The notes: generated by a model from the letters alone, not told the origin. Counted from the whole stretch's first letter, positions 436-21,413 are shown. The stretch: DNA of 45,673 nt, filler included, from Streblomastix strix (GCA_008636045.1; 2 parts of 2 records of this genome joined end to end with filler, not necessarily neighbours in it), one strand, 5' to 3'. Program-made: numbers and translations.

Positions 436-884
436 CGCCTTTGTTCGAAAATATTATTGTATTTGTTAAATCATCAGTTAAAAAAAAGAACTTGCGTGGT
501 TTTTTATAAATACTAATTCCTTTTGAAGTTATTGCATAAATAACTATTATATACTACTACTTGCTTTGCAAAGTCATAGACTAATATGTGCAAAATAAAT
601 AATAAATATCAACACCCTTATATAAAATAATTAAAATAAATAAATAACGGTTAAAAAAAGCTTTTTAAAAAAATATCTCCAAAAAGCCCCCCACATGAAT
701 TTGTAATAATATACAACAACAAATAATGGATACACATAATTTTAGTAATAATTTTAGCATGGAGATTTAACAAAAAATGTCATAGCCACGGACCGTTCCG
801 GGTGTTCCAGGTGTTTCGAGTAAAAAAATTGCTATAAAAAAGTGTGGCCAATCGGATAAACTGACCAAAAAATTTTTTTTTCTT
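436..884 (+). repeat. Left terminal inverted repeat of element 1 (outer ~125 bp missing)
   Basis: Reverse complement of 20845-21288, roughly 95% identical by eye, with mostly transition differences. Confidence 0.95.
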
Positions 885-1094
885 TCTCATAAGTTTGTAT
901 TATATTTTTTAACTACCATAATAAGGCTCTAATTATTTTATTGTACTTTTTATATTGCAAATTATACCATGTAAAGCTTCAACTTATATTTTCTTTAGCT
1001 CTATGTTAAAGTCTTTTATTTCTTTATTTAGTTGTTCGTACATTTGTTGTAGTTTAGGTTCTTAATCTTTTAAATGTTTATAAAGTTCTTCCAT
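780..1094 (-). CDS. Small coiled-coil hypothetical protein (MEELYKHLKDQEPKLQQMYEQL...), reading into the TIR
   Basis: Open in code 6 (104 aa). The 23 bp ending at its ATGG are identical to those of the HNH gene. The true 3' end is uncertain. Confidence 0.45.
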
Positions 1095-1122
1095 TTTTAT
1101 AATTAGTTAAAAATAATTATTA

Positions 1123-1792
1123 TCAATTATATAGGTCATACTCGCTAAATTTTTATTCTTGTTAATAATTTTATTCTATAGGCTCTTGTTGAATCTCTTG
1201 TTATTCCTCCTATTTTTCAGGTGTTTATTTTGGTTGTTTATAACGTTTTACTTTTTTTACTTGTATTTCCCTATTTATTTTATGGCATCTTAATGCTATT
1301 GCTTTATAAATGTGTTTTCAGTTCTTAAACGTATTAATTCTTCCAAAATCAAGCTATGGATTTGTATAGTTGATTTATAGCTATTTTGATGCTTTTATAA
1401 CTCTTTTATGTGGTTGTTTAGCCTCACGCTATTGCTTTATCGGCCTTTCGGGTCTTTCGCTTTGGCTAATTGTTTCATCATCGCTTTCGTTCATATCTTC
1501 TTAAATATCTCTGTGTCTTTCCTCCTATTATTCATAATTTATAAAATCTTTTTCTTCATCCACAACCTATTTTTAAACAGACAATTTTGATGGTTTTTTC
1601 TTTGTTTCTTTCCCCTCCTCGAGCTTATAGCAATAGCTTATTTTACTAAGTTTATGTCAATTTTCGCAGTTGCTTTTTGCCGTCTTTATATATCTTTATT
1701 TACTTGTTAATCTAAACAACATAACCTTTATCAAAGTATTCAATATTTGTTCCATTTTCTATCAAATTCTTAAGAACATGCGATAATTCCAT
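1123..1792 (-). pseudogene. Conserved element hypothetical protein A, with a +1 frameshift near 1345
   Basis: MELSHVLKNLIENGT...PQLD/LEELIRLRTEN...SEYDLYN*. Homologous to 41509-42065 (PQIDLEELIKLRTEN...NEFELY*). Length is 3n+1. Confidence 0.75.
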
Positions 1793-1816
1793 TTTAATAT
1801 TTTAAAAATTAATAAA
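1793..1816. promoter_or_regulatory. 24-bp bidirectional intergenic spacer, putative promoter
   Basis: Separates divergent ATGs and is nearly identical to the 24-bp divergent spacer at 6468-6491. Confidence 0.45.
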
Positions 1817-2511
1817 ATGATTAAGGGTATTGAAAGAAACGAAGTAAGAATGTCGAAGAATAAAAAATAAATGTCGGATATCAAGAAAAAAGATCTTACA
1901 GATGAGGATAAAATTAGACTCTAACTAATCGATGAAGCAATTAATCGTATAAAAATGATGCCTACGGACTAAGAAACAGCACAATAAAAACCTATAGAAA
2001 ATTAGAATGAAAACATACCACATAAAAAGTATAACATAAATAGATATAAAGAAGTTGATAGAACAACCGCATAAGTATTAACGGAAGAGGCAATATAATA
2101 GTTAGCAGAAGAATAGTCAAAAAGTGTATACCTATCACATCCTAATCTCATAGTATAAAAGTTTGTGATTGATGTTATTTGGCGCACCATTACTCACAGA
2201 TAACGAGGAGACGATTTTTGTTTTTTCATCTGAAAATTTTATAAAATTTTGGGCACTAATCACGCAGAATGATGAGAATGATGTTGAAATCGTTCTAGAG
2301 GAAGCAATTATATAACCACATACTTGCATACCTAAAAAGTACAAGAAAAAGGACTTGATTAGAGTATAAGATATTTTAATAAAAAAATGTATCTGTAAAA
2401 GTGTTGGATAATGTGCTATATAACTCTATTGAAAAACTTTATCGAGTGAATTGCGACTTCATCCGTTTAAGCGAAGCACCAGAGATAGAAATAACAGAAA
2501 ATGATTTTTGA
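1817..2511 (+). pseudogene. Conserved element hypothetical protein B, with two +1 homopolymer frameshifts (~2218, ~2385)
   Basis: Aligns with the intact homolog at 42097-42843 (EDKIRLQLID, YLSHxNL, ENDxEIVLEE, VLYNSIEKLYRVNCDF). Confidence 0.8.
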
Positions 2512-2561
2512 AAATATTTATAACCATATTTATTTTTTTAATATTTTTATTATCTATAAAA

Positions 2562-2978
2562 ATGGACCAGCTAGAAATTGTTTTAAGAGGCAAATTGTTG
2601 GTACATCCTCAAAATATGCCGAAAGAAATATACGTAGAACCAATTTATTAATGCAGTGATGATTTTTACCAACGAACATTAAGTAAAAATAATAAGCCAT
2701 ATTATAAGTTGTTAAAACGATATGGAAAATAACCTGATAAATACCCACAAACAGTAAATATAATGATTGAAAAGCGGAACAATAAACATATCGACGATAT
2801 AATTAAAGAATATACAAAACAAATGAAGGTCTTATGTGATAACAGGGATTTTGGGGTAAAATACCGAGAATTAAAAGAAGATGCAGAATAAATGTAATTT
2901 TAAACAAAATATAATAAATACGGATAATGTGGTGTCAAATGTCTTGTTAATTGTATTGATTACTATGTTAATAAATGA
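2562..2978 (+). CDS. Conserved element hypothetical protein C (138 aa)
   Basis: Intact in code 6. Homolog at 42891-43337 (VEPIYQCxDDFYQ, KLLKRY, PQTV, VKYRELKE). Confidence 0.8.
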
Positions 2979-3003
2979 TATGATTTATTTTTGGATTATA
3001 AAA

Positions 3004-4051
3004 ATGAATAATTAACCAATTAGCGATTTATCATTACTTGACGACGAAGATTTAATAAATCAAAAAGAGGAATAAAAAAGGTTAAAAAAAATATATGCAG
3101 AATAACAAAATTAAACTAGATAAAAAAATATTCCATTACAAATTATAGGCAACGAAATTATTAAATACTTTAATTATTTTAGTTAATTTTTTTAAGAATT
3201 CAATTGAATATGTTAATCTACGAACTAGTCAAATAATAGACGGAGTAAAAACCTTTTTATAGCCTATTGTTGCTTAAAAATTCATTAAAAATAAAGATAT
3301 ATGCAACCAAATTTTACTCGCTAATGGAGATACAACTGATATAGCTGATTTTTTGCCTATATAATATCCTCACGCGTTTGGGTAAATGACTATAGAACCG
3401 AATGATGACATACGTAATTAAGGCATACGGATAATGAAAAATTAAGCAAATTGGGACAGTTTTATACTCACTGGCTGTAATGCTGACCCCACAAATAGAG
3501 ATGTAGTATGGAAAATGGGATCAACTTCATCATAACTTAGGATTTAAAAATAAGAGGATGAGGCATATGATTATAAAGGTATAATTATTGGTTTTGATTG
3601 CACCACATTAAAATTCAACAATTAAATTGTAGCTCTTATACCTACCCCTCCTATTGATTATGCAATTTAATAGTCATTAGGTATTGGCGTATTTGATTCT
3701 TTTACTTAGGGGTAAGTAATGTTACAAAATAACCGTGTATATATTTCTATAGCAATAACTCACTCAGACCCTAATACTTATTGGAATACTGGATATACTA
3801 TATTTTCTGTTATGAATGATGCAGCAAAACCAAAATTTAGTGGATCACCTCGTACTTTGCCCCTTAATGCAGTTATGTACGTAACAAAATAATCTTATAA
3901 TCCAGTGGTATGGACTAATGCAGTTGCCATTGATTGTTATGTTGATGTTGATGGGCATATTAAAATTAATGCTATATGTTAGTTTTATTTACCTGGTGAT
4001 TTTTGTGTATAGTTTTGCGATTCATATGTTGTTTATAATTAATCAGCTTGA
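3004..4051 (+). pseudogene. Putative fibre / receptor-binding protein 1 (frameshift in T-run near 3190)
   Basis: N-terminal coiled coil, tail-fibre-like QIIDGVKTF...NQILLANGDT motif, and a beta-rich C-terminus shared with 43358-44110. Function is inferred. Confidence 0.6.
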
Positions 4052-4069
4052 AATTTTAAAAATAAATAA

Positions 4070-4210
4070 ATGGAAGGATTTAATGAAAGCATTAGTACGT
4101 AGTCCATCATTTATTCCCTTGAATAATTAAATATAAATTGGCATGCAATCTTTAAGGCTATTTGGGAGGCAGCAATCAAATATGCTTGTGAATCGAAAAT
4201 TTGCCGGTGA
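4070..4210 (+). CDS. 46-aa protein with an amphipathic segment (INWHAIFKAIWEAAIKY)
   Basis: Clean ATG-TGA ORF. The 20 bp ending at its ATGG are identical to those of 6492-6698. Confidence 0.5.
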
Positions 4211-4235
4211 AAAATTTAATTTTATTTTTATATAA

Positions 4236-4376
4236 ATGATTTGGGAAATAATAACTAGTATATCATTAATGGTTATAGCTTGTAATGATTTGCTTGGTTG
4301 TATATTAGTAACAGCATAAATAAAAATGGATAGCGAAGAAATTATCGAAGAGGTTAGGAATTCAATATATGGATGA
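4236..4376 (+). CDS. 46-aa small membrane protein (MIWEIITSISLMVIACNDLL...)
   Basis: Hydrophobic N-terminus. Same-length homolog at 44105-44245 with the same stop position. Confidence 0.75.
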
Positions 4377-4478
4377 GTCAGGGCTGCAAAGCAGGCCGCA
4401 AGGAATAATAAACAAAAATAATGAAAAACTAATTATTTTTACCCACTAATCATTACGGACCCCTTACCATGTCTTTGC

Positions 4479-6467
4479 TCAACCGCTTCTAATTGATGAA
4501 CCGCCTATCTCTCCTATAACATCCATGCTTAATACTTATGGGTCTGGGTTATCATCAAATGTTATGCGAATAAATGCATCACACAAATAGTGCATAATTG
4601 GTGTTAGTGCTACCTGATGTGGATCTGGGTAGCTTCGCATTACAATAAATTGCTTAAAATCATTCTAGTTCATTGATGGATTTAATTATGTGGTATCTAT
4701 AATTTCTTTAGTCAAATTTCCTTTTAAAAATTACTTATATATTTGTCCTAGCAGCTATTTTTGAAGAGTTATAACTTCGCATAAATGAGTCATCAGTTGC
4801 CATTTTCCATTCCAGCATATACTTATTTGGGTTTAATGTTTTTGCGGCTTTACTTCCATTATATAATGTTGTATTATAAAATATATTAGCATTAGCTCCT
4901 ACGTTACCTCCAGCGTCAACATATCCATAAAAATTGTTTTTATCATCAACATTTACATTTTCAAAAGTAAGTGAATCGTATAGGTCTGATGGAGCACTTA
5001 CAACATCTTAATCGACAAAACAATCAAACATTTAGCTATTAGTTGTTTGGGTTAAAGCTTTATACGATTATGGTATTAAATTCTTTTAATCATCAACTAA
5101 ATTAAAGTTACAAAATAGAATAGGAAAAAACCAAGTAGGATCTTGTGGCATAGCAAATGTCTTGAATAGTTCCTTTATATTATCAAATGACATTATACTT
5201 TACATACTACCAGAAACAGCCTAAAAACCACTGAAGGGAAAATTTGAAGATTAAGACCTTATAACTTATGTTGGGAAATTTATTATTCTTTATGCTTGTA
5301 TCATCTAAATAATTGCATCTTCATTTTCTATATTAAAAAGTACATTTTATATTTCTAGCTCTTTAAATTTGGCATCTGATATTTAACTAATGGATTTTTA
5401 TGGTACTGTTGCATTATTCGCAACATTTTACATATTTACGAGCCTAACAGCATATTATTCATATGATAGTGGAGCCGCATTATTATCACTTAATAAATAA
5501 ACAACGTCTGGTTTCTCTGGTGGAATCATCGCATATGCCAAATGACGGTTTTTAATAGTATCTGATTTATTTAGCCCCACAATTTTTAAATCCTAAAGGA
5601 AATACTACACCCATAGTTATAAGTATAATGATGTATAGTTTCTTGTCAGTACGGGGAATGAGTTAAAAATTGGGTTAAATTAGATCAAATCTAATACACC
5701 GCTAAAAGTTATATCATGTTCTATTCAATAATAATATGGTGTTCTTTGTTATCCTGCTGCTGCTGTAGCTTATAAATCTATTTCACAAAATGATATATCC
5801 AAGAAAATACCGCAATGACGTTTACCAGCAATGACACTCTCGAATGGTGAGATACTGACGCTATTATTAGTGCATAAATCTGTTAATGAATTTGAACAAA
5901 TAACTGCTTACTCTCTCGCATATATTGCTGTATTCCATAAGTTTTAAGCATCTTGTAATATTGCAAACTAATTAAAGGATCCGCAAGCCGTGGAGAAACC
6001 AAGACAAAACTTCAGGTGTTCGCTTTTTCTTCACCATCAGCAGTTTTTCCATAATATTTTTATTCACCTTATGTCATAATCATAGGGTCTGCAGTGAGGT
6101 CATTATTTGCATTAAAATTAACCCTTGCTCTTAATTCGTCGTCGTCACTTCCTGAATCTTCACACCTATTTAGTTACATGGCTAATATATTTGCTGGGAT
6201 TGTTATAGTTCAATTTATTTTGCAGGTTTATACCATTGTACAAGTTGCTGTACCTCTAGCAGCCAATGGCGCACGTGTATATCTAACACCTGATGATGTA
6301 AGTTAATTTACTGGCTAGTCAAAAAATTATTGTTTAGAAATTGCGAAGGATTAGGCATGAATTGATAGTATTTTTAACTCCTCACCAAGTTGCATGTATC
6401 CACTAATATAATCGGAGTGTTGCATTTTGGATAGTCTTTAAAGGTATTCAGATGCTGAGAGTGACAT
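4479..6467 (-). pseudogene. Putative major capsid protein (double jelly-roll), disrupted
   Basis: ~660 codons, beta-strand-rich (MSLSASEYLQRL...FIRITFDDNPDPQVLSMDVIGEIGGSSIRSG*). Internal TGAs and frameshifts (~6020, ~4728). The MCP call rests on size, composition and context, not on a diagnostic motif. Confidence 0.6.
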
Positions 6468-6491
6468 TTTAATATTTTTAAAAATAAATAA
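6468..6491. promoter_or_regulatory. 24-bp bidirectional spacer between the putative MCP and the amphipathic protein
   Basis: tttaatatttttaaaaataaataa versus tttaatattttaaaaattaataaa at 1793-1816. Confidence 0.45.
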
Positions 6492-6698
6492 ATGGGATTT
6501 TTCAGTGGTATAGCAAACATTGGAAGTAAAATTTTGGGAGATATTAAACATGCAGCTTAATGGGTAGCACCAACTCTTCATAAGGTACTATCAACAATAT
6601 CAGGCCCCGTAGGAATGATACACCCAGGAATTTGTGGAGCATTAGGTGCTGGGGCTAACCTTGCAGGAGCCGTGTATCGACTTGTAAATAAGCGTTGA
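6492..6698 (+). CDS. 68-aa Gly/Ala-rich amphipathic-helix protein, candidate membrane-penetration protein
   Basis: MGFFSGIANIGSKILGDIKHAAQWVAPTLHKVLSTISGPVGMIHPGICGALGAGANLAGAVYRLVNKR*. Intact and head-to-head with the putative MCP. Confidence 0.75.
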
Positions 6699-6828
6699 AA
6701 CAGAGCTCCGAAGGAGGCCGCCATAATTAGTCATAAACATTAGTCTCTGACATTTTTTTATCAAAAAAGTGGTTGCGGTTCGTTCCACACCTTTGATACT
6801 TTGCATTCCTTATTTTATTTTTATTAAA

Positions 6829-8553
6829 ATGATTACCTAAATTAATCCATTAACACAGCAACAAATCCGAACAGTTCGTTAGCTTATCACTAATGATATA
6901 GCGTATTATATACAGTACTAGAAAAGGGGAAGCTCTAGCGGTGGAATGTTGCAAAATGATGAGTATTAACTGTTCATAGATAATGATAACGCACTAGTAT
7001 ATGCAGCTAATAATTAAATAGTTGATGGTTATGCAGCTGATTATGCACTCAAAATAGCACCAAATGGATTATTGACAATAAAGAATTTAAAGGTAAAAAA
7101 CTTTGATTTTGTTGCATAAATTAATCAATTAATTAATGAAGTAAATTAACTGTAGTCGTCAATAGTAGGGGTAGAGTAAGATATTGATGGATTAAAAAAT
7201 GATGTATTAACTATATAGTAAGAACTAGCGTGATAAACACATTTCTGAGGCTATTATTTGTTGAATAGTGCTATATAAAATTTGCTTAATTCGGCAAATG
7301 GAGACTTTGCATTTAGTGCAGAAAGTGGAACTGTATGGATGTATGAAACTGATTGGTGTAACAGTGGTGATGTGGTCCCTGATTAGGTAACCCCTGCCAG
7401 TGATGCAATATCATCAAATTCTAATGGAAATGGAAGTGCAGGAACTAGTAATGAATATGCATGAGGAGACCATTAACATCTTTTGTAAGTTTCCACGGTT
7501 TTACCTGCAAAAGATACTGCAAATGGTGAGGCAGGAGTTGCTACCACTTATGCCAGATCTAACCATACACATCATGTAAATCTAAATAATGATGTACCAC
7601 TAAAAGATATGGGAAGTGGAACAGCAGATACGGCAAATATTTATGCTAATGCAACACATTAACATTCATTAAATGTTAATCCAACAACTGCAAATGTTCC
7701 ACTGGTAAATGCTACTGCTGCGGCTAATGGTACAAGTGATTTTTTAGTAGAAATGACTATGTCCATCCATAGTAATTAACTTATAACGGAAATATTACCG
7801 CAACTAAATTTAATAAAACAGGCGAATTGGCTTTGGAAGTACTTTGCTCTAATGGTGATTCAATAAACGGAGTGGTTGATATAGCATCTGATTAATCCAT
7901 TACTGATGCAAAACCATTTAATAATATATTTTAAATAGTTCCTATTGGTAATGGAGTAGTTGATACTGGAACAGATTAAATAATTATGAGTATAAAAACA
8001 TTTGAAAAAGTTGTATAAATTAATCCAAATGGTGATAATTTTAATGATGGAGTAAGAATATCACGATCGGCTAATAGTGATTATTGTGGAATTTATTTAA
8101 GTTATAATCCTCAATCAACAACGGGAACATTAACGGATTAGTGGAGTATGGTAAATACCCCTACTGGTGAATTAAGGATAAGAGTTAATACGTAAATAAA
8201 TCAGAATTACGGACTAATGATATCCGCCGATGGAAACACGTTAAATTTTTATGGTAAAATGAATTCAGGTAATTTATAAATTAACCCTTCAGCTACTAAA
8301 TATGATGATGGATTGAGAATATCAAGAACAATAAATAACACAGGTGGATATTCAATTTTCTTAGGACGTAGTAGATCATCCACTGTTGGAAAAATTGATA
8401 ATTAATAGTAAATATTTACACCACCAAATACCGCTATATCTAACCCTTAATGTTTTGTTATAGCGATTGTAAGCTGATTCAGGTGATACAGCCAGAGGTT
8501 TATAAATTAGTGCAGATGGAAATACTTTAACATTCAATGGTAGAACATTATGA
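6829..8553 (+). pseudogene. Long phage-tail-fibre-like protein 2 with internal repeats, disrupted
   Basis: Coiled coil, four ~31-aa repeats ending YARxDHxH-like, then two modules ending GLxISADGNTLxF. In-frame TGA at 7231, 7246 and 7462; frameshifts near 7741 and 8474. Confidence 0.7.
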
Positions 8554-8595
8554 TTTTCTTAGTTTATGCTAATGCAACAATTTATTTTTAAATAA

Positions 8596-9050
8596 ATGGC
8601 CACATGCAAAGACCCTATAAATAGCTCTTTAATGATGTAATTAAGTAAAATTTTGAAAGTGATGATTCAATAAAAGCAACAATTGACGCACTACAAAAAT
8701 TGTTAGTAAAAGATAAAGAAATAATACTGCACCCATTACTCTAAGAACTAACAAGAATAAATAAGTAGTTCATGAATTAATAAAACAAATTACAACAAAT
8801 AAAGCAGTATGTTGATGCAGAAGATTATAAAAATAAACTGTTCAACGAGTAAGAAAAATATTACAAAAATAAGTATAATTTTATTAAAGAACAACTAGAT
8901 TAAAACAATTAGCCATAGCAAATAAAGATATACATTATATCTGATGCAAATGAACAGGAAAAATAAATATATAATGATTTTGTTAATGAAACATAAAATA
9001 GTGGTTTGGTCAATTATTATTAGATGAATTTAACCGCATCAATAAATTGA
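8596..9050 (+). pseudogene. Hypothetical helical protein, frameshift near the start
   Basis: Long open frame to TGA 9048-9050. The ATG at 8596 is offset by one base. Confidence 0.5.
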
Positions 9051-9278
9051 AGTATTATATATATTCTATTATTTACACTGTTTTATCCTGCAAAGATTCT
9101 AAAAAACAATAATGACTTTTAAATTAATGGTAAATTTATTTTTCTTGATAATTCATGTAATTATTTTCAATTAATGCTTCAAATATTTTGAATATCTCAT
9201 AGTCCGTAACGTTATATTATAGGCCAATGTTTGTAGCTAATTTATATATAGAATCCATTTTATTTACATACAAAATAA

Positions 9279-10295
9279 TCAATTTCTCAATATTTCATAC
9301 TTGCTGAAAAACTTGTTTAAAATAATAAATTCATATTTTTATAATGTGGAATATAGCAGTAAAAACTCTTCAAAATCAAGGTTTTATATAGTATTTTCTT
9401 CATATACTTGTTTTAAATCACTCTCTCCAAGATTAGCGCCTATTGTTATTACATGGGATAATATCCTTGCAGTTTTAAACAAATAACTTGGACGTTAAGC
9501 TATAAAAAATATCGTATTTTTCGAATGTCGAGAGTCTGAAACCAAATGGGTAGTTGATTTAGTCAGTGAAGAATTAAAACGTTAGATATCGGCATTACTT
9601 CCAATATCATCAAAAAGCATTAATGTATTTAACAATTATGCTTTAAAAAGTACTGGTATTTTCATTATTTTTATATCAGCTGTTTGTTTATCATCTATCA
9701 CCTTCATTTTCTTTTCATAGCTAATATTTTTAATAAGTGCTGGAATATCAAAACGTAATATTTTAAATGGCTAGCTATATTTATTTATTGTTTCTATATC
9801 ATATTATTTGAATAAATCAGCTATTCGTTTTAAATAATCTTGTGGCTTTTCATTTGCTTTAGCTTCATTTTATTATATTATTTTTTCTTCGACTCTTTTT
9901 ATAAAATCACTAATATATTCGAAACCTTACTCATGCAATTTATACCAAGTATGCATCTCCTTAGTTGAATTTTTTATTTCATCAAATTCTAGTAAAAACA
10001 ACATTGCTTCCCCATATGTTATATTGGTTAATTATATGTTTTTACTGTTAGGATTTAATGTTATTGTCTCATCAACACCATAATTTGAAAAGTATAATAT
10101 GTATGGATTAATTACTTTTTAGTATATTACTATTAGCTTAGATATTAACGTTGTTTTACCTGAACTAACAGTTCCAACTATATAATGGTTTCCATTAATG
10201 AGGAATAAGGAGTTTTTAGTTAGTGGTCCTGTTTTATAGTCGTTAAGTAGATCCTAGTTTGAAAATGTTATGTTTTGTATATCATGTAGTGTCAT
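9279..10295 (-). CDS. A32/FtsK-HerA-type genome packaging ATPase (338 aa)
   Basis: Walker A YIVGTVSSGKTT, Walker B LMLFDDIG, Arg-finger SDSRHSK and FFIAQR. Intact in code 6. Confidence 0.9.
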
Positions 10296-10518
10296 GTTTT
10301 TAAAAATAATATAATGAATATACTTAGTTTGTTTATGTATCTAATGAATTACATATATTTTGGAGTTATTTTTTATTATATCTGTTTGGTCTGAATCTAT
10401 TCCTGAGCAATTAACCGATATCGTTAATTTAATTAAAAAATTATGGGGCTATTTTGATATAACACCTGTACCTCTAAATATAACGGTTTATGTTATATTA
10501 TTTTTTTATAAAAGAAAA

Positions 10519-10677
10519 ATGGAGCACTAGCTCGGAGACAAACAACAGCCTAAAATACATTCGTCATAGCTAACCGTTGAATAAATAAAACAATTTTTGA
10601 ATGATGCAATTTAATAAAAAGACTTGGAATTAGCGTAGCATTTTCGTTATATTTTATACCTTAAACTATTAAATTGA
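10519..10677 (+). CDS. 52-aa hypothetical protein
   Basis: Clean ORF MEHQLGDKQQ...QFLNDAIQQKDLELAQHFRYILYLKLLN* with an A-rich start context. Confidence 0.5.
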
Positions 10678-10733
10678 CCATAAAAATAAATGGTATGATT
10701 TTTATTTTCTATTTTTTTTAACTAATTATAAAA

Positions 10734-11303
10734 ATGGCTGAAATAAACGAATGGTAAATACTAGTTGTTGATAATGATTACGAAATCATGACTGAAGAAC
10801 CACACGTTATAAGACGAATTAGAGACTAATTTATTCCAAAAATTTGCGTCAATGGTCATGGTTATTAATAAATAAGATTAAGCGGATAATCAAAATAATA
10901 TCACCGTGTTTTAGCATAATAGTTTATACCAAATCCTAATAACTTACCTTAAATCGACCACAAAGACCGTAACCCTTTAAGTAATAGTTTGGCAAATCTC
11001 TGGTGGGTAACTTCTTCTGTTAACTTGAAAAATTGGTCATTTTATAAAGATATCGTTTTTGAGTATGTCCCTTAACTAACTGATGATGCAATAGTTGTGA
11101 ATGAGTATGGAAAATAACACTATGAATTCTTATAGTTCGATAATGATAATTTTTATTTCTATACAGATACAGTAAATAGATAATTGCTTATTAATGAAAA
11201 TAAAAATAATGGTATTTAGTTTGTATACGCTTATGATACAACTAATACCAGAAGGGCAATTTATCTCAATAAATTTAAGCAATTATACAATATACAATTT
11301 TGA
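10734..11303 (+). CDS. HNH homing-type endonuclease (HNH_3-like, 189 aa)
   Basis: HRVLAQQFIPNPNNLPQIDHKDRNPLSNSLANLWWVTSSVN. Open frame. Confidence 0.9.
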
Positions 11304-11322
11304 AAAATAAATTATTTTTGCC

Positions 11323-14300
11323 TCATTATACCATATAATCACTTGCTTTCAAACCAAATATAAATGGGCAAGAACTTTAATCACTTAGTACCACCATTTT
11401 TGTATGGCAGCCTGTTATTCTATTCCTTTCAGTAGATAACTTACTCATCTAATAATTCTTTCATCCGAGCCTCATATTCGTACATTTTGTAATTGTTCCG
11501 TTGGTTATATTATCCATTATTTAGTCTTTAGTTATTTTATTAGCATTTTGATTTACCCCTTTTAATTTTATTTTTTCTTTATCGCCAACTTTAATATAGT
11601 AATTTTTAGGTGCCAATGCAACTATTTCTGTACATTCACTTTCAATAGCCAAACCGAGTATCTTTTTCTCGTCCAACAAATCACCTTCAATTGTGGGGAA
11701 AAAATACTTAACATTTTCGTCACAAAACTATTAATTTTTTTATAACATGTTTAAACAATTATTTATGACCTGCATCCTCATCACTACTGACCGCCCAATA
11801 TGCTGAATCAGTCTCTCCTTCTACAATATGCAACTTGTCCATATACAAACACTTGCGCATGAAATTGTAAATGAAATTTAAGTACCAATATTTGGCATTG
11901 TCTAATACGAAATAAGCAACTTATAAAGAAGTTTTACATGCGCATGTCTCTGGATTCATATATATGGCATAAACATCATCGGCTAGTTTCTAATCATTAA
12001 TAAAAGTATTCGACAAATGAGCTTAAAGTGCTCGTTTTTCACTTATTATTTTTATCTTTGTATATTTCTCAGTGTTCATGCAATCACTTCCGTACGAGCT
12101 ATTCATATTGATTTTACAAAATTGTTCTAATCCTATTTACCCTTCAATTTTGGCCTAAATTCTTTGGCTTGTAAATTCTTTCACAAACCCATTGAACTTG
12201 TCATGTTTATCAAACAAAAGCAACTGTTTAACATCATCAATTATATAATGGCAGTTATCGATTAAAAACCATAAATAATAACTTGAAAAAGACATGTAGC
12301 CGTCCATAGTAGATAACAAATTGGTTAGCTTCCGCTACTTTTGATCTGTTTTAATTCCGCTATCTTTCATATGCTCGTACATGTATTTACCTATTGTTTC
12401 TACATTGGTCATAAGTTCATAATTCCTTAAAATTGATGGGAAATTAATAAAATCGTTCAAATAATTCTCATCAATATGTCCCTTTATTTCTACTATAAAT
12501 TATTGTCACCATTTATTAAATCTATTTTGGTTATTTATTATATTAATTATTTTTTGTTTATTTTCATCAGAATTATTCAATATTTTACCAACAACAGACC
12601 CATGCATATGCATCTTACCACCGGTATATTTAATAAATTTATGAGGTTCTGATGACATGACACTGGGATATAAAGAGTTGAAATCTATTCCTATTATATG
12701 TGTTATTTTATGGTCAGATGTTAAAAAGGTTACTGTTTTTGTCTCTTTATTATACCAAAATTTCTTTATATAGTCTTACCCTGCAATATTAACCCTATGC
12801 ATCACGTTAGAAAAGCCACCAGTTATGCCTTACCTGATTAGTTTATAAATATCAATGTCTGTTAAATTTGTTGGTAAGTGGTTGAAGCTGCAAAATCTTC
12901 CTAATTATATGAATAGTTTTTGGATGCTTTTGTCTTTATTCGAGCAAAAGGTGTTACAATACAAACAACACGGTGGTACGTTATCTTTTGAATGACCCTT
13001 TTTATTATCGATTCTATCAAATGTTGGCTTTTTATTTAGAGTGAATTCGTCGCTACAAATCGCACATTTGTTTTCATGAAATAGTTGTTTGAAATATTCG
13101 AAATCTGACTCTAAAACATTATTGGTTATATCTATTTTTTGTTGCAAATCCTACATTTTATAATAATATGCTTTACTATTCCAATATTTTTATTATAAAA
13201 CGAATTAAGGTGATTTATCGACTAATTTTGGATAATAACCATTTACATTAAACACTTTATAAGCTAGTGCATATTTAGTTGAATTTGCTCATGCAGCTAT
13301 TGACATAAAACTAAACATATCGATGACGAACTTCATCTACATTTGAATCAAAGCATCAATCGGTTCTTCCATTATTTTGGTATCCTGTTCATTTTAATTT
13401 TAAAGGAATTCCCATCTGTTTTTGAATAGCTTTGCATCTAAAACATATTAGTCATATTCTACTTACTTCATTGATGTATTTTTCAGTGTTGAATTGAATG
13501 ATTCAATTAGAAGTGGTTCTGATTAGTTTAAAATTTCTTTATAGTTACCAGTGTTTATAAATTCATAAGGAAATACACCTTTTAAACTATTGACTTTATA
13601 ATTAAAAGTTTATGCAAATTCTTTTAAAGTAATTGGTACGTAATAAATCAATAAATCAATAAATTTAAGCTTGACGTCCAAGTGCTTATGTTAAACAACA
13701 ATTTGCTTGGCTACTCCTGAACTGCCAATATAACTCTTTATTTCCCAGTCAGCGCATTATAAATTCCTGAATATTGTCGAAAAATCAAATTTTGAACTAT
13801 TAATTCCAATTACTGGTTCCTCCACATTATATTGCATGTTTTTATCTATAGTACCTGAGGAGGTGTCATATTGATTATCTTACTATATGATTACTGCCTC
13901 ATTGAACACCTGCTTTAACCATTGTGTTATAAAATCATCTCCATTTCGCAAATCGGAATATATTGTGTGAATGTCTTGTTTATTTTTAATAGTACAAGCA
14001 ACAGATAAAGGCACTAGTTCGGATATCTATTTGCTTGATTTACCAAATTATTTATTAACAATTTTTTTAACTGTTTCCAAGTCATATGTTATATAATATT
14101 ATGTAGGTTTAAACTCTTTTTATCTTCCATATGCCAAAAGGTATTAGTATGTTTTGTTTTATGTGATATATGGGCAAAACGGTTTTTATATCTAATCCAA
14201 TTAAATAGTCTTGACCAGTTTATCACCATTTTATTCGCACAATTTAGTATGTTTTTCATAGTCTCTTAGGAAATTTTTGCTTTTAGTATCAAACACTTTT

Positions 14301-15887
14301 GACTTGCAAAATAGACAAAATTTTAAACCAGTTAGTGCTTCCTTATTTGCTATAGCAAATGCGTGTTGCGCAAGTATTCCGTCAATTTCTTCCTAAACAA
14401 TTAGTATATCAACGGTTTGTACTTCCTGTTGCTCATTAGTTTCAATGTCTCCGTCTTGTTCCTGTTCCTCATCAACATATTTAATTATATCACCCAAATA
14501 ATAAACTTTGTGCTCATCATCATAAAAGTATATATTCTAATTAATCATAAACTTTTGTATTATAATTTAGGAGTATTTCATAAAGTCTAAACCTTCAAAT
14601 GTTTTTAAAAATTCAGTCATTTATCTACTTTTTGCATCGAATGGTAGATCTAATACCTTAACAAGATACTAACTGTTAATGCTTATAATTGAGTCCTATT
14701 TGTATCGTTTCTAATCGGTATCATGATTTAATGCTTTGGCTAGAGCTTCCATATAACACATATTATTTTCTCCATTATTTTTTTATAAAACTTTCTTGTG
14801 TCCATCCCAGTGTTTTTAAATCAATTCTTTGATACTTGACCCAACTACTACCTTTTACAATTTAAATATTTTAATCATCATCGAATAAATTGCTATTTGA
14901 CGTTCTTTTGTACTATCCAGATTATAATTTTACATGTCAATAATCTCCGTCTTTATATATTGTTTGTATTCATCAATATCGTCATGTGTTTATATATTCT
15001 TTGGTGTATATGTTTAGGTTCTTGCTTCTCGTGGCAATAAATGTTTATAACTAACAACTTTCTAACCATTTTTATCATGATCTAATTCTTCCACTATAAT
15101 ACCAAAATTGAATAGTATTTTTAATGCTCTATGATATTATTTGTTATAAATTGAATCAACAAATTCCTCTATTTTTTCCCAAGAATCTATGTAATTTTTA
15201 TAATATATTGGACTTATGCTATCGTCTGATATAATTTCCTTTTCACGTTAAAACCCTTACCTTGCACGTTTAACCTATTATTCAAATTTTTCATTATCAA
15301 TTGGTGGAAATAATGACAATGTTTCTGTCTCATTTTCAATTTAATTAAATTAATACCCTTCATTTTTTCTAATTTTTTCATATATTTCTTTGTTCTATTA
15401 TTAGCTTGTCAAATATAATGGAAGAATAAAATGGTCATACATTTCTTTAAAATTATCTGGTTTTGTAAATTTCTTTGACTCTTATAATAGCATCAAATCA
15501 TGTTCTTCATTCATTATTCGTATTGCTTATTCGGCTTATTATCTTTAGTAATCAGTCCAAAATACATCTGCTTCTTGTTGTTCTCTTTCTCTTCTATATT
15601 CTTATAAATTTTATTCATATTATTCATTTCTATGAACCGTTTTTTTAATTTAATAACGTTATAATCTAGCTTATTATATTCGTTATTCATATGCGTTTCT
15701 GCGGGCAACATGTTCCGTTATAAATTAGCTGAGTTTATTATAATTATTTTTTTCCTTAATCATAATGTTGAAAAGATAAATAACCTTACAATTTTTATCT
15801 TTATTGTGGAACTTTTAGTTTTTCATCGAAATTAGGCTAATTAATTTATATTAATTATATAAGTTATTATTTACGGATTGGGGCCAT
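11323..15887 (-). pseudogene. polB: Protein-primed family B DNA polymerase with an inserted endonuclease VII-like domain, disrupted
   Basis: ExoI YDLET, ExoII NSSKFD, KGVFPYE, motif A DFNSLYP (~12670-12690), motif B KINMNSSYG (~12090-12118), motif C EGETDS (~11805-11822), APKNY. CAIC...DRIDNKKGHSKDN...CLYCN insert at ~12950-13075. In-frame TGA at 13289-13291 and frameshifts. Confidence 0.93.
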
Positions 15888-15941
15888 TTATTTAAAATTA
15901 AAATATATAAAAATAATTTTGGAAAGAGAAAAAAATATGAT

Positions 15942-16265
15942 TCAAAGGGTTATTTAATGTTCATCAATATCGTCATCAAACTCCTGCTATAATTATGGAT
16001 ACGCATTATATAAATTGTTTATTGTTTCCAGGTTGTTTTCCATTATTTTTTTATAATGTTTTATCTGTTCTTTAGCATTATACACCACTTCATCAATTGT
16101 ATAACTAATAGTATGCAAATTAACTCCTATTGTTCCTTCACATTATTTAGTATAATTTGATGGATTTTATAGTTGCATTTCAAACCTTTTTATGTCCTAT
16201 AATGCTGTACTATAATGCAGCATTGATAATTCAAATGTCGTCAAAAATTTATTTTATTTATCCAT
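15942..16265 (-). CDS. Hypothetical protein (107 aa)
   Basis: Intact ORF. The 21 bp ending at its ATGG are identical to those of polB. Confidence 0.6.
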
Positions 16266-16287
16266 TTATTTAAAATTAAAATTATAA

Positions 16288-17757
16288 TCGTTGATACTCT
16301 ATTTCTAGTAGTATATTATTGTATATATCCATAAATTGCATAGGTATTTTTCTGCCAAAATTGTCATATAAAGTGAATACCAAAGACTTATTTTATCCTA
16401 TCAATCACTATTAAGACATCATGTTTTACCCCCATAATACCGGAGCATCAACCAAGTTTTATTTAAAGCACACATTTGAAAACCCATTACCGCCAATTGA
16501 CTGTAAAGTAATGCCTTAAAACTAGTTTGAAACACTAATTATTAACATCTGCGGATATTCAAGAAAATTACCAATATATGGGCAAAAAATTGGTAAATCA
16601 GTTTCTATACTTTAATTATCAAATTTTGTTTAGTAAAACCATATATCTAGGTCTATTTACTTTATAGCAGATGATAAATTTATTAGTTGATTAGCCCCAT
16701 TTTCATTAAGTCCATCATATAAATCTTAAGCACCAGCTAGTTATACATACAAAAAAGGCGATAAAATTATTCTATTAGCAAACCAGTAAGTGTGTAATGT
16801 CTTAACGTAATCGCTTATAATCTCTGGGATAAACTAGCCATAAAAACTAATTCTACCAAATAAATTATAAATTATTTTCCATAAAGTAATATAAAGTGCT
16901 GGTAATGAACAAATTAATCTTATAGGAAACGTATTTAAATTATTAATAATATACTGCATTGTTTGTTGCTATACATTAATGGGTTATATATCTGATGACG
17001 TAAAAGTTCCATTAAGGTTTATATCTACTTACTTGCCAAATAAATATCTAATTGTTAGACCATTTTATGCTCCAAATTGCTTTGGTTCTATAGATATCAT
17101 ATAGTTAGTTGTTGTAAGACAATATAATCGAATTAACCCCATAGCTCGATATGCTACATTAGCGGTTGTGTCTAGTATCCAGTAGTGATATAAAAGTGCA
17201 TCAATCCTTAAATTTATGTAATTATTTGCTGAGCTAACAACATCCTACCCATAATTTATATTTAACTAGTAAGCTCTATTTTATAGTTTCTATGTGTGCT
17301 AATTCAGACCATTATTAAAACATATTGCTCCACTATTCAACGTTATTTATGTACTAAAATGCTTCTACATTGTATTAACAAAGCTTTATATATTGGCTAA
17401 TCGAAGAGCTAATACTGTAGGCATATATTTATATCCTTATGCAATTTAGTCGCTTGTAAAACAGTTATCAATGGCTATATTCATGTTTAATCTTATAGAA
17501 GGTAATTTGTCTAAAAGTTATAGCTTAAAAGTATCATTTGATATATTTGTTTGCTGGTATATTTTCATCATATCCGAAGACACAATGTTATGCAATATTT
17601 CGATATAATCACTATTTAAATAAAATATTAAATTAATTGGTATATTATTAATGCTATTAACTTGAAAGCTTTAGCAACCACTTGGTATTGTAGTGTCCCA
17701 CTGTACAAAATCCTTATCAGAGTCAGAGATAATAATTTGCAAACTTATACTACTCAT
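16288..17757 (-). CDS. Putative minor capsid (penton-like) protein, ~490 codons
   Basis: Beta-rich. The C-terminal VFTLYDNFGRKIPMQF...NILLEIEYQ resembles penton C-termini. The expected stop reads CGA, so the 3' end is inferred. The internal frame was not fully verified. Confidence 0.5.
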
Positions 17758-17777
17758 TTTAATATCAAAAAATAATG

Positions 17778-18034
17778 TCAAGAGCAACATCACGAAGTTA
17801 AATATTCAAATAACTTCATAACAGCATTTTGGCTATTTTCTTATGCTATATCTACTATTTTTTTAACTAGTCCATTTTCAACCGTTTATTAAATTATCGT
17901 AATAAAAAACGTAGTTCTATTTCTGGTGGTGCTTTTGTTGCTACGGATACTAATGAACTTAGAAACTTTGCATATACCATATACTCATCACAAGTTATTT
18001 TCAACATTTTACGGGGAGGCGTTAATTATGCCAT
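17778..18034 (-). pseudogene. Small hypothetical protein (MAQLTPPRKMLKITCDEY...), frameshifted
   Basis: Plausible helical ORF with a 1-bp loss in a homopolymer near 17862. Confidence 0.45.
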
Positions 18035-18204
18035 ATTTAATAAAAATAAAACAAACAAATCAATTATTTTTAAAGGTTGAAAATTATGAAGTAATGTGCA
18101 AGATACTTGAAATTATAATGATTATTTCACAAAATATGTGTTGTTATGCCATTTGTTTGTTAATAAAAATATAAATAAGAATACATAATTTTAAACAAAA
18201 TAAA

Positions 18205-19291
18205 ATGCCACCAAAGAGAGAATAGAAAGCATAGAAAGTTTAAAAGGTTGCATCAGTCAAACAAAAACCAAAACCTAAAACAAGTGTTAGTGAATTTATT
18301 GAATCAAAAAGCCGAATATACATAATGGTTAATAAGTTAAACCTAACAATGTAAGTAAAATACCATATATATTAGATGTGTTAAAACTATTGGAAGCTGT
18401 TAAAAAAACTAGGTCCAGGTTGTAGTAAATAACGATAGGATTATATTATTTAAGTAAGATAGTATGACCCTAATATTACCCATGGAGATGTAGAAGCAGC
18501 TTTTGAAGGTATGAAAGATGCGACAAGAAGGCAAAGACATTTTGATGGTATTGATCCAAATGACTTAAAACAATATTATAGGGATTTAGATGAACATATA
18601 CGAGGTGTTCATGATCCATTATAAGGTGTTTATAGAAACGAAGCCATGAGTGATTAGTCCCTAAGTATAAATGCTAGAGCAAATGAACTGGCAAATGATA
18701 TAGGAATCCATGCGCTTCTTTAACCATCATTACGTGCAACAGCACCTCCAAAAGGTATTCATAAAGAGGATGAACTGATGAATTTTATGTTTGGCTTTCA
18801 TTAAGAAAAGGAAAAGAAAAAGGTAAAGGAAAAAGACAATATTTATTAAAATCAAAGTCTTGATAATACATAAGATGCTTTTGAATACTAAATATAAAAT
18901 TTTACAGATTAATAACAGCAAATAAGTCCAACAAATGAGTTGCAATAATATTAGAGAGAAAAATAACTTGAAGGATAAATTTTATAGCAAGATAACGCAC
19001 AAATGCAAAAGACCGTAGAATATTTTACAAACGGAATAAATTTGTAATCTGCCCCTGTAAATCAATATTATAGCAAAACACCATATACTACAAAAAAGAC
19101 TGGATATTATATGAATGAAGGGGGACAATTATATTTACAAACAAAGAAGGATTTTATACGGAAAGAAGACAGAATGAATAGGCCACCAAAACATAATAAT
19201 TATATACCAACAATCTAGTTATAAAAAGTCTTTAGATGCATAAAAATATTTAAAAAATAAATATGGTAAAAATTAGAAAAAAAAGTCATGA
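18205..19291 (+). pseudogene. Hypothetical protein with a basic N-terminus (MPPKREQKAQKVQKVASVKQKPKPK), possible core/DNA-binding protein
   Basis: About 360 codons with at least one frameshift (length 3n+1). Function is inferred from the basic termini only. Confidence 0.55.
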
Positions 19292-19603
19292 TAAAGATAC
19301 TTGTGGTGCTTCATTTTTAAATAAATCGTTAGTTTTTATAATAACATTTTGTTTTATTTTCTTTTGTATCATATAGTTTATTTTTATAACATCTTCGTTA
19401 TCTAATATTATTTTACCTAATAATTTTATAACTTATATTTGTAGAGTAGAAGCTTATAGGTTAAACTTTTTTAAATCCTCGCTTTTTCTAGCTTTATATT
19501 CTTTTCATTATTATCTTGCAACATTTTTTGCTTAATCTTCTGTTTAATATTTTTTAGGTCTTCCAGCTTGTAAAGTTTGTTTTACAATTTTTATATCTTC
19601 CAT
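19286..19603 (-). pseudogene. Small basic protein with an AT-hook-like GRPKKY motif; nonsense at codon 33
   Basis: MEDIKIVKQTLQAGRPKKYQTEDQAKNVARQQ*KEYKARK. TGA at 19505-19507; the frame is otherwise open. Confidence 0.65.
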
Positions 19604-19627
19604 TTAATATACTAATAAAAAAATAAA

Positions 19628-20839
19628 TCAAAATAATTAAAATGTTCTATTGTATTTTTCAGGTAATACATCAATTTTGTCAGCAACTTTATGCGTATAA
19701 TATACTGGAACTTCAACTGTTTTTATATCTTTATATGGTTTTAGCAACTCACATATAACATTGCCATGCTAATATTTTATAAATGTTGCTACCTCATTAA
19801 ACTACCTTCTTTTCTTTTAAAATCCATGAGGTGTTTTTGATAGATCCAAATGTATCATTATTATATTACCTTTTGTTAAATCTAGTTGTTTATTTTTGTT
19901 ATATAAGTCCTTTATATTTTTTAACTACTCCATTTTCTTACGTATAAATATACCTTCTAAATCCTCATTATCATTAACTTATGAAGGACTAAATGATTAT
20001 TTTTAAAGCTTTAAAACATTATGTTTTGTGTTGTTATATCCGTCAACTACTTGCTATATTTATTTGTTATTAGCCATTAGCTAAGGGTCATTTTCAAATG
20101 CGTTTTTTATTGTTCTTACTACTGAATCAACAACCCGATTTTTATTTATGAAAGGTGAAGAATTAAAAAAATATTTTATATTATTTTATTTTAAAAACTC
20201 CTTAATTTGTTTGCTACCTAAAGCCGCTTCACCATCAGAACGTATGTTATTAACATTTTAGTCTTTGATAAGCTACTTTATACATCTTAGTAGTTCGTTT
20301 GCTGTTTTATCCTTTAAAGGAAATACAACTAAAAATTTGGTATTAATATTGATGGAAAACAAATATTACTACACAATTTTATTAACTGTTTGGTGCATTA
20401 CAAAAATTATATCAATTTCCCAGCTCCCAAGCTCTGGTGAAAAATATGGCCTTTAGAATTTTTTTAACGGCTTTATTTTTATGTCTTATATTACATCATT
20501 TTTGTTTTAAATTTTTCTACAAAATATATTTGTTATTCGCTAAGGTTATTATTCTTGTTTTGGCTTTGCTTATGTCTTTGTTGTTTGTTTTATTCTTTCA
20601 GCGTGATATTTCGTGAAATTATCCAAATAAATTTTATACCATTATGATTTAGTTTTATTTTCAAATAATTCTTACAAATTGTTCATATTAAATTGTTTTT
20701 TAAAATGAAAATTTAAATTTCTTATAAAATCCTATAGTTTTATTTTATCGACTTTGAAAGCCTTATCATCAATAAATTTTATTTTTTATTAAAACATTTA
20801 TTATGTATTAAATTATTTTATCCCAATTATATAAGCCAT
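19628..20839 (-). CDS. Retroviral-like (rve) integrase, 403 aa
   Basis: WEIDIIF (D1), FSININTKF...PLKDKT, IRSDGEAA (D2), NKNRVVDSVVRTIK (third acidic residue), YNNTKH. Open frame starting next to the inner edge of the right TIR. Confidence 0.88.
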
Positions 20840-20844
20840 TCATC

Positions 20845-21413
20845 AAGAAAAAATTTTTGGTCAGTTTGTCCGATTAGCCACACTTTTTTATGGCAATTTT
20901 TTACCCGAAACACCTGGAACACTTGGTCCAGTTCGTGGCTATGACATTTTTTGTTAAATCTCCATGCTAAAATTATTACTAAAATTATGTGTATACATTA
21001 TTTGTTGTTGTATATTATTACAAATTCATGTGGGGGGCTTTTTGGAGATATTTTTTTAAAAAGCTTTTTTTAACCGTTATTTATTTATTTTAATTATTTT
21101 ATATAAGGGTGTTGATATTCATTATTTATTTTGCACATATTAGTCTACGACTTTGCAAAGCAAGTAGTAGTATACAATGGTTATTTATGCAATAACTTCA
21201 AAAGGAATTAGTATTTATAAAAAACCACGCAAGTTCTTTTTTTTAACTGATGGTTTAACAAATATAATAATATTTTCGAACAAAGGCGTTAGCCAGCTGT
21301 GAAAAAAATTTATAAATTGTAAGGCCAAAAGCTTAAAAAATGATGAAGTGGATACTTTTTATAAAACTGAATACTTTTTGAAGTTAGGGAATAAATCCCC
21401 ATTATATACTACT
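20845..21413 (-). repeat. Right TIR of element 1, including a terminal imperfect hairpin (21166-21413)
   Basis: 20845-21288 matches the left TIR. 21292-21413 is an imperfect reverse complement of 21166-21287, with apex GGC-GTTA-GCC. Confidence 0.88.

Follow-up and report, generated by a model that had tools for sequence, protein, structure and literature searches.

A probable decayed, integrated Maverick/Polinton copy from Streblomastix strix with TAA and TAG at glutamine positions

Tetrahymena thermophila, the host of the Tlr elements, reads TAA and TAG (TAR) as glutamine, and Tlr genes use the same code. That the endogenous viruses of Streblomastix strix also use a TAR = Gln code has been stated, in one sentence, by Bellas et al. 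2023 (PMC10120064, available in part, as were the other papers compared below), who counted 820 S. strix capsid hits, all in one "Metamonada" cluster ~32% identical to Trichomonas capsids. The element analyzed here, element 1, occupies positions 436 to 21413 of the window (the whole 45,673-nucleotide stretch of DNA under study, filler included) and has in common with those elements the host label, TAR = Gln genes, a likely double-jelly-roll capsid, and high copy number. It differs in that its capsid family gave no Trichomonas match in our tests and has standard-code relatives in metagenomes. In addition, whereas the accessible part of PMC10120064 holds no gene-by-gene map of an S. strix element, element 1 is mapped gene by gene here. 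Since a virus in the host's code is already in print for S. strix, it will not surprise a specialist; what we add is the gene-level map, codon-level tests, and standard-code relatives outside the host.

Like Mavericks/Polintons (PMC4028283, PMC11071308, bioRxiv 2023.08.22.554363), which span 13 to 25 kb, element 1 has terminal inverted repeats, a protein-primed family B polymerase (pPolB), an rve integrase, an ATPase, and a capsid gene. Its pPolB carries a nuclease insert that may parallel the HNH domain of nematode and oomycete pPolB2; nothing on such an insert was found in the accessible part of PMC4642659. Unlike described Mavericks/Polintons, 74% of which encode a cysteine maturation protease (PMC4028283), element 1 yielded no protease and no readable target duplication, and it has a nonstandard code and fibre-like genes. 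The Tlr elements resemble it in having integrase, ATPase, and both a major and a minor capsid gene (in element 1 the minor one is a candidate) and no protease but carry a superfamily 1 helicase instead of pPolB (PMC4028283). Adintoviruses (PMC8502044) likewise combine pPolB, integrase, and capsid genes with small membrane-active accessory genes (of which element 1 has a candidate), but their hosts are animals and they encode an adenain protease, whereas element 1 belongs to a protist, judged by its homologs and code; no sequence-level match between the two was found. A giant virus whose genome reads best in code 6 (PMC13524828) also has genes that are open only with TAA/TAG as Gln, but it is a large Imitervirales genome, not a Polinton.

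Structure and gene content of element 1

The window consists of two pieces, 1-22796 and 22897-45673, joined by an artificial spacer at 22797..22896 (N44-TTAATTAATTAA-N44), so it may be this joining alone that brings element 1 together with the host gene and element 2. Contigs of four runs from three studies covered all 30 window bins at ≥88%. Element 1 is a Maverick/Polinton copy whose length (~21 kb) and inverted repeat (436-880 versus 20845-21288, 95.5% over 445 bp) both fall within the size and repeat ranges of that group (13-25 kb, repeats of 100-1500 bp). The right repeat (20845..21413) is full length, with an outer 250 bp that forms an imperfect palindrome, and its end at 21413 reads AGTAGT inwards. 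The left repeat (436..880) lacks its outer ~125 bp, and this truncated end is abutted by a MITE-like element (170..433) with 42-nt inverted arms and TA at both ends; bin 1-664, which lies over the MITE-like element, had the highest summed contig depth of the 30 bins in all four runs. No target-site duplication of 5 to 8 bp was readable, the 6-mer after 21413 being absent beside the left end, whose outer part is lost.

The left arm begins with a decayed, coiled-coil-like gene on the minus strand (approximate limits, 858..1600), 74% identical over 31 aa to 41650-41742 in element 2. Three plus-strand genes follow, one with two frameshifts (1856..2511), one of 138 aa (2562..2978), and one that is beta-rich and labeled fibre-like by eye (3095..4051; no Pfam or PHROG match), with element 2 homologs at 42097-42843, 42900-43337, and 43358-44110, respectively. 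A small broken gene (4070..4376, plus) has an inverted homolog at 44105-44268 (73% nucleotide identity over 164 nt). The major capsid protein (MCP) gene, at 4479..6467 on the minus strand, is interrupted by two TGA codons (6210 and 5725) and two frameshifts (near 6030 and 4726). Beside it, a plus-strand gene of 68 aa (6492..6698) has an amphipathic N terminus (its first windows have a hydrophobic moment of 0.42-0.49) and 80-87% matches within two S. strix gene models; we infer that its product is a candidate membrane-active virion peptide. The long fibre-like gene with repeated motifs (6829..8553, plus) contains TGA at 7231, 7246, and 7462 and at least one frameshift, near 7745, and gave a weak PHROG tail-needle match (E 0.0075).

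The packaging ATPase (9279..10295, minus) is an open frame with Walker A and B motifs recognized by eye and 31% identity to the ATPase of the metagenomic relative L002 over 285 columns; its orthologs lie near the capsid gene in L002 and in a second relative, L001. Its FtsK-type assignment is weak (E 0.05), and Pfam gave nothing significant for the element 1 protein and weak P-loop matches for the element 2 copy. An HNH endonuclease (10734..11303, plus) matches Pfam HNH_3 above the cutoff (E 2.6e-6) and a PHROG family (E 3.8e-16). The pPolB gene (11323..15763, minus) matches Pfam DNA_pol_B_2 at E 7e-6 (25.6 bits versus a cutoff of 25.8) and PHROG polymerases, and its endonuclease VII/HNH-like insert matches PHROG endonuclease VII (E 1.9e-11). 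It is broken by three TGA codons (13289, 12506, and 11461), one of which was compared against a homolog, and a frameshift near 11735. At the N terminus, where Maverick/Polinton pPolB carries terminal-protein and vOTU domains, a Cys and a His motif were recognized by eye, and the 824-aa piece matched no profile. The penton (minor capsid) candidate (16291..17757, minus; TGA at 16405) has nine S. strix homologs and an L002 ortholog near the MCP and ATPase genes (hhalign E 1.6e-6). It is followed by a gene with a basic N terminus (18205..19290, end approximate, plus; no significant profile match) and by the retroviral-type rve integrase (19628..20839, minus), an open frame of 403 codons whose Pfam rve match (E 3.9e-5) is below the cutoff. 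Two other long frames, of 869 codons (17542-20151) and 567 codons (16377-18080), were rejected as single genes, because most of their length runs antisense to the integrase and penton candidate genes. A Pfam scan of 35 frames turned up no maturation protease, though decay or divergence may conceal one.

The original prediction was of a near-complete virus with genes for replication, integration, and packaging. That gene set was confirmed by Pfam, PHROG, and motifs (pPolB, rve integrase, ATPase, HNH), and the element is near-complete in length and in its inventory of genes, but only in these respects: the capsid, polymerase, penton, and fibre genes are broken and the outer left end is absent. 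The breaks might instead be assembly or amplification artefacts in an intact provirus, given that such artefacts are described for other protists in the accessible part of PMC10120064 and that the MCP breaks at 5725 and near 6030 are covered by no exact-match contig. We consider this improbable: exact-match contigs, from a sample that is possibly the window's own source, bridge the TGA codons at 7246 and 7462, the extra base at 2215, 2381, 4726, and 11735 is missing from related contigs, the left end is lost beside the MITE-like element, and the two repeats have diverged by 19 substitutions in 444 columns (4.3%), 15 of them transitions.

TAA and TAG as glutamine codons

Read with table 11, the whole window gives 12 open reading frames of ≥80 aa, the longest of 121 aa, so that standard-code annotation misses nearly all of its genes, as had been predicted; table 6 opens the viral genes as well as a host gene of 5,891 aa. 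An open table 6 frame nevertheless says little about function, since a single codon of the 64 ends it, and chance frames in shuffled sequence reached 659 codons. Nor did we accept the prediction that the genes end in TGA as a test of the code: it holds for 13 of 13 genes checked, but reading with table 6 guarantees it, making the argument circular and, alone, weak. Among codons of the Gln type, TAA/TAG account for 328 of 440 (75%) in 19 viral gene segments; the host gene's figure is 323 of 466 (69%).

More direct evidence came from aligning element 1 with element 2 (778 columns), with Gln-type and stop codons masked during alignment. TAR was paired with CAR in 9 columns versus 0.94 expected and with TAR in 10 versus 1.9 expected (P ≤ 0.0002 in each case), and no enrichment was seen for TAR opposite codons for Lys, Glu, Tyr, Leu, or Ser. 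In controls, the synonymous exchange TTR-CTN was enriched 5.3-fold, whereas the nonsynonymous C/T exchanges His/Tyr and Pro/Ser were not. Of the 35 TAR sites in the MCP, 28 had Gln as the commonest residue of S. strix homologs, and 20 of 23 conserved-Gln columns carried TAR, a test that is partly circular because the homologs were themselves translated with TAR as Gln. In nine distant capsid homologs, Gln stood opposite TAR in 49 of 277 cells versus 13.6 expected (P ~1e-4) and was the commonest residue there. Against L002, the one relative of confirmed code, Gln stood opposite only 5 of 43 TAR columns (P = 0.02 over a background of 3.7%) and 1 of 12 CAR columns. Placement of TAR at Gln positions, set beforehand as a refuting check, was thus upheld by the TAR-CAR exchange and the distant homologs, and more weakly by L002 alone.

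Could TAR have arisen by C-to-T drift in dead copies of a virus that, when active, used CAA/CAG only? Element 1 is decayed, most differences between its repeats are transitions, and 7 of the 35 MCP TAR sites are not Gln-majority. Yet repeats that differ by only 4.3% leave no room for decay to have made a 75% TAR share, TAR-TAR pairs are common to elements that are ~55% identical, and the nonsynonymous C/T controls were not enriched. A decay origin is therefore largely refuted, and we regard it as very improbable. The predicted adaptation of a virus lineage to this code accordingly stands, in that, within a host of the same code, the genes were written with TAR as Gln during the lineage's active period. 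We are confident that element 1, integrated, 21 kb long, and now decayed, is one copy of a multicopy Maverick/Polinton family, likely from the oxymonad gut protist Streblomastix, with TAA/TAG at Gln positions; only a host with such a code would read its genes in full.

The capsid family and its relatives

A search with a piece of the capsid protein gave 268 matches, and among the matches listed, 120 of 120 were S. strix proteins; five S. strix capsid gene models of 652 aa, on different contigs, are 85-97% identical to one another. Fold tests were run on database homologs rather than on the broken element 1 gene. The homolog's model had a pLDDT of 52, and its gene model is fused to a small neighboring gene. 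Double-jelly-roll viruses made up 33 of the 35 matches listed against PDB structures (best E, 0.007), and the top six BFVD matches were capsid proteins (best E, 0.0014), with no Foldseek match at E ≤ 0.001. In the ESM Atlas, the homolog scored 0.95 with Capsid_N and Sputnik MCP clusters, and a Parabasalia-rich cluster ranked second (0.96). VIA gave a best Z of 5.8, below the tool's noise level, for residues 331-578 (the C-terminal half) only. Pfam found nothing significant in 52 family members, and PDB sequence searches gave nothing useful. Because three weak tests agree, the capsid candidate likely has a double-jelly-roll fold. The predicted virion proteins are to this extent borne out for the capsid but not for the penton, whose model (pLDDT, 30.6) is uninformative on fold; the L002 penton ortholog scored 0.91-0.92 with virus-rich clusters (148-162 shared features, V18-19 in 10% of one cluster).

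Outside S. strix, the capsid family has metagenomic relatives with intact standard-code genes, L001 and L002 among them, and relatives lie on contigs of 20-22 kb. Under table 11, 15 open reading frames cover 91% of L002, and 10 of them end in TAA/TAG; read in the TAR = Gln code, these genes would be extended by 1-92 codons. No polymerase or integrase was seen in the part of L001 and L002 examined. The wider capsid family is thus not confined to the TAR = Gln code. A long 100/100 branch, of length 1.6 in one unrooted tree and 2.1 in another, sets the S. strix capsids apart as one clade, and since the outside relatives keep standard-code genes, recoding likely occurred on the stem of the S. strix clade, a direction that rests on parsimony because the trees are unrooted and, among the distant homologs, L002 alone has a confirmed code. 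A first metagenome scan with the S. strix capsid alignment found nothing, and capsid and polymerase queries found no relative in IMG/VR, where the search patterns assume the standard code, so that this blank is no evidence of absence.

The capsid could belong to the Trichomonas-like "Metamonada" cluster already counted in S. strix. The shared host label and the second-ranked Parabasalia-rich cluster point that way, and our comparison rests on the best 120 of 268 sequence matches and the best 150 of 207 profile matches. Against it, four S. strix capsids named in the accessible part of the published supplement are absent among the 120 matches listed, DUF4106 (the Trichomonas capsid family) was matched by 0 of 52 members at E ≤ 1 (without a positive control), and a profile of the outside relatives had no named parabasalid among its 20 matches. 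Membership in that cluster is quite conceivable, if not what we expect. The new part of this work may be that the capsid family looks separate from the cluster counted in 2023, and we give about even chances to the fuller reading that S. strix carries a second, uncounted Polinton family that came in from a virus lineage of standard code, its recoding being independent of that in the Trichomonas-like family. If the family is separate, the viral share of the S. strix genome has been underestimated, and recoded and nonrecoded sister lineages would allow a look at the long-standing idea that alternative codes confine viruses or keep them away. Were there indeed two families, two virus lineages trapped by the same host code would form a natural ratchet test, with standard-code sister viruses on hand in metagenomes.

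Element 2, virion formation, and host range

Element 2 (41500..45673) is divergent and partial, consisting of homologs of five left-arm genes and, immediately after them, the ATPase (44263-45294, with an in-frame TGA at 44512) before it exits the window. Its protein identity to element 1 is 47-83% by segment. The prediction of two divergent members in the window therefore held in that a related second element is present, but this one is partial and lies on a separate piece. Only element 2 adjoins the host gene, from which it is separated by ~800 bp on the same piece; that gene (23004..40679, plus) is dynein-heavy-chain-like (Pfam Dynein_AAA_lid, E 3.8e-7, above the cutoff), with 323 in-frame TAR among its 5,891 codons.

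The part of element 2 inside the window contains no capsid gene, which, together with the lack of a maturation protease in the 35 frames scanned and the unproven penton fold, would suit a family that no longer makes virions, a self-synthesizing transposon tied to its host by inheritance and matching its code passively. Hundreds of capsid gene copies have been kept, however, some at full length, as have the ATPase, penton candidate, and fibre-like genes, and the relatives occur on 20-22 kb metagenome contigs; a transposon without virions thus seems to us rather unlikely. Active members would replicate as linear genomes, with protein-primed synthesis beginning at the repeats, integrate by means of the rve integrase, and probably use the ATPase to package DNA into double-jelly-roll capsids. 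Element 1 has decayed since then and could be mobile now only if intact siblings help it.

We propose that a standard-code ancestor entered a TAR = Gln host at the modest cost of C-terminal read-through in genes ending in TAA/TAG and that AT-biased synonymous drift then turned about three-quarters of its Gln codons into TAR. In a standard-code cell, such codons would halt translation within the first 30 codons, and the result would be an easy-in, hard-out ratchet on host range. Virome pipelines that use table 11 will miss TAR = Gln viruses. In 12 of 12 viral genes, the first TAR lies at codon 7 to 30, and from these early codons we infer a putative restriction of the virus by its host's code.

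Genetic code of the viral and host genes

The window comprises two pieces of about 22.8 kb each, separated by an artificial spacer (22797–22896). Read with standard stops (table 11), it yields 12 ORFs of at least 80 aa, none exceeding 121 aa, in line with the original observation that standard-code annotation misses nearly all of the viral genes. Table 6 (TAA/TAG=Gln) opens a 5,891-codon frame (23004–40679, + strand) in which a dynein lid domain scores above the Pfam cutoff, and the host is therefore a eukaryote with TAA and TAG as sense codons. This host gene is intron free, dynein-heavy-chain-like and highly divergent; the lid is its sole domain past the cutoff, and its second half gave no Pfam match.

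Across 19 viral segments, 328 of the 440 Gln-type codons are TAA or TAG (TAR; 75%); for the host gene the count is 323 of 466, figures that agree with the claim that the viral genes use the host's code. We then aligned element 1 (436–21413), a Maverick/Polinton copy, with element 2 (about 41500 to the window end), masking Gln-type codons for the alignment (778 columns; 5,000 shuffles). TAR stood opposite CAA or CAG in 9 columns (0.94 expected) and opposite TAR in 10 (1.9 expected), and in these columns TAR showed no enrichment against single-base neighbor codons of Lys, Glu, Tyr, Leu or Ser. Among the controls, synonymous Leu codons were enriched and His/Tyr and Pro/Ser were not. In the capsid gene (4479–6467, − strand), Gln was the commonest residue at 28 of 35 TAR sites among Streblomastix strix homologs, a partly circular comparison. 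With nine distant homologs, chosen by length and low score from 150 listed profile matches, Gln lay opposite TAR in 49 of 277 cells (13.6 expected), so that the predicted alignment of TAR with Gln held; the signal was weaker against the metagenomic locus L002 alone (5/43; p = 0.02). Decay does not account for the 75% TAR share, given a repeat divergence of about 4%.

Structure and decay of the two elements

Element 1 is bounded by inverted repeats (436–880 and 20845–21288; 95.5% identity over 445 bp) that enclose an rve integrase (Pfam E = 3.9e-5), a family B polymerase (11323–15763, − strand; E = 7e-6), an HNH gene (E = 2.6e-6), an ATPase (Walker motifs judged by eye), capsid and penton candidates, fiber-like genes and several genes without assigned function; no protease was found among 35 frames scanned with Pfam. 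Within the polymerase lies an endonuclease VII/HNH-like insert (12949–13189, − strand; PHROG E = 1.9e-11); one preprint (bioRxiv 2023.08.22.554363) describes an HNH insert in pPolB2 as unique to nematodes and oomycetes. Protein-primed replication, rve integration and ATPase packaging are established for Polintons (PMC11071308, PMC4028283); by analogy, this element family would replicate by protein priming, integrate through its rve enzyme and package through its ATPase.

The right end extends to 21413, its tip reading AGTAGT inwards, and the outer ~125 bp are absent from the left end, which adjoins a TA-flanked MITE-like element (170–433) that may have caused the deletion. Because the left end is truncated and abuts this element, a target duplication cannot be read. 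In all four runs, summed contig depth along the stretch peaks at the MITE-like element. The outer 250 bp of the right repeat (21165–21414) form an imperfect palindrome (70%), with a DNA fold of −40.9 kcal/mol, a value without a shuffle control, and this fold-back is possibly a replication origin structure. To the right of element 1, a 349-codon frame (21457–22506), the last 237 codons of which gave no Pfam match, may be a host gene fragment.

The capsid gene is broken by two in-frame TGA codons and two frameshifts relative to full-length homologs, the polymerase gene by three TGA codons and one frameshift, the long fiber-like gene (6829–8553, + strand) by three TGA codons and a frameshift and the penton candidate (16291–17757, − strand) by one TGA; the integrase, ATPase and HNH genes retain open frames. 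Such breaks can be artifacts, as a warning within PMC10120064 states, and no exact-match contigs cross two of the breaks in the capsid gene, at 5725 and close to 6030. However, the 4.3% divergence between the terminal repeats fits real ageing. Exact-match contigs span two of the fiber-gene TGA stops. Some doubt remains, but we conclude that element 1 is a real but decayed element. The proposed near-completeness applies to the length and the set of genes; the capsid, polymerase, penton and long fiber-like genes are broken and the left end is truncated.

Element 2 contains an ATPase homolog, interrupted by an in-frame TGA, as well as homologs of five left-arm genes, and no capsid block as far as the window reaches. 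Its segments are 47–83% identical to element 1, consistent with two divergent members, as proposed. Roughly 800 bp separate it from the host gene within a single piece, linking the family to the host genome. Between element 2 and the host gene is a short inverted-repeat element (41177–41475; 42-nt arms at 88%).

Capsid and penton candidates

A model built from 52 capsid homologs, the top row of which is a gene model that also takes in the small neighboring gene, reached a pLDDT of 52. In Foldseek, no match to the homolog model reached E = 0.001, and 33 of 35 PDB entries among the matches listed were double-jelly-roll virus entries; the top six BFVD rows were capsid proteins, mavirus first. VIA placed a jelly roll at residues 331–578, with a Z of up to 5.8, below the tool's noise level, and in the ESM Atlas the homolog P0034 scored 0.95 for clusters of NCLDV and Sputnik capsids, and 0.96 for a cluster rich in Parabasalia. 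Together, these searches lend moderate support to the predicted jelly-roll fold.

The penton structure model was unusable. An ortholog lies near the capsid and ATPase genes of L002 (E = 1.6e-6; alignment score 105 against a maximum of 78 in 300 shuffles); its Atlas neighbors are virus rich, with few shared features, and the element 1 gene stays a penton candidate. A small amphipathic gene (6492–6698, + strand) adjoins the capsid gene and is fused to it in the database models P0010 and P0051, so that some annotated capsids of the family are chimeric predictions.

Relatives and the predicted code barrier

A capsid-piece search gave 268 matches; all 120 among the matches listed were S. strix gene models (46–88% identity). 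A cluster of 29 members includes five of 652 aa that are 85–97% identical to each other, and some of the models bear the automatic name “Major capsid protein.” Contigs from four runs (three studies) cover all 30 bins of 1–19900 at 88% or above. The host is thus probably Streblomastix. Code adaptation of endogenous viruses is already in print for S. strix: Bellas et al. 2023 (PMC10120064) report that they use the host TAA/TAG=Gln table, suggest a long association and describe 820 capsid hits in a single cluster seeded from Trichomonas DUF4106-family capsids. A giant virus genome in code 6 is also reported (PMC13524828). The four S. strix capsids in the supplement rows examined of the 2023 set are, however, absent among our 120 listed matches; none of 52 family members matched DUF4106 (a search without a positive control), and no parabasalid appeared among 20 matches of the outside-relative profile. 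The window's capsid family is probably separate from the Trichomonas-like cluster.

Searching 1.84 billion representatives with a profile yielded 207 matches; among the 150 listed, several full-length ones were metagenomic, three on 20–22 kb contigs. Two loci (L001, L002) and three proteins (P0214, P0232, P0236) represent a virus group with the same capsid type, standard-code or code-unverified, some on 20–22 kb contigs; IMG/VR scans did not find it. The capsid and ATPase of L002 match those of element 1. Three tandem L002 genes of about 200–220 aa (5380–7293), between ATPase and penton candidate, look paralogous by eye; the one scanned had no Pfam match. In two unrooted capsid trees (14 and 9 S. 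strix rows sampled), a long branch with full support separates the S. strix rows as a group from all others, outside rows also having long branches; on the simplest reading, recoding would have occurred on the stem of the S. strix clade.

Of the 17 L002 ORFs listed, two were set aside, one because it overlaps another in antisense and one because its frame has an open end; under table 11 the other 15 cover 91% of the locus, and 10 of the 15 end in TAA or TAG. In a TAR=Gln cell, these 10 genes would gain tails of 1–92 codons (seven of at most 14), and in a standard-code cell the window genes would stop at codons 7–30 in 12 of 12 cases; at the sequence level, the code barrier is thus asymmetric. 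Because of these early stops, we can soundly infer that the code would restrict the virus family to its host, as originally predicted.
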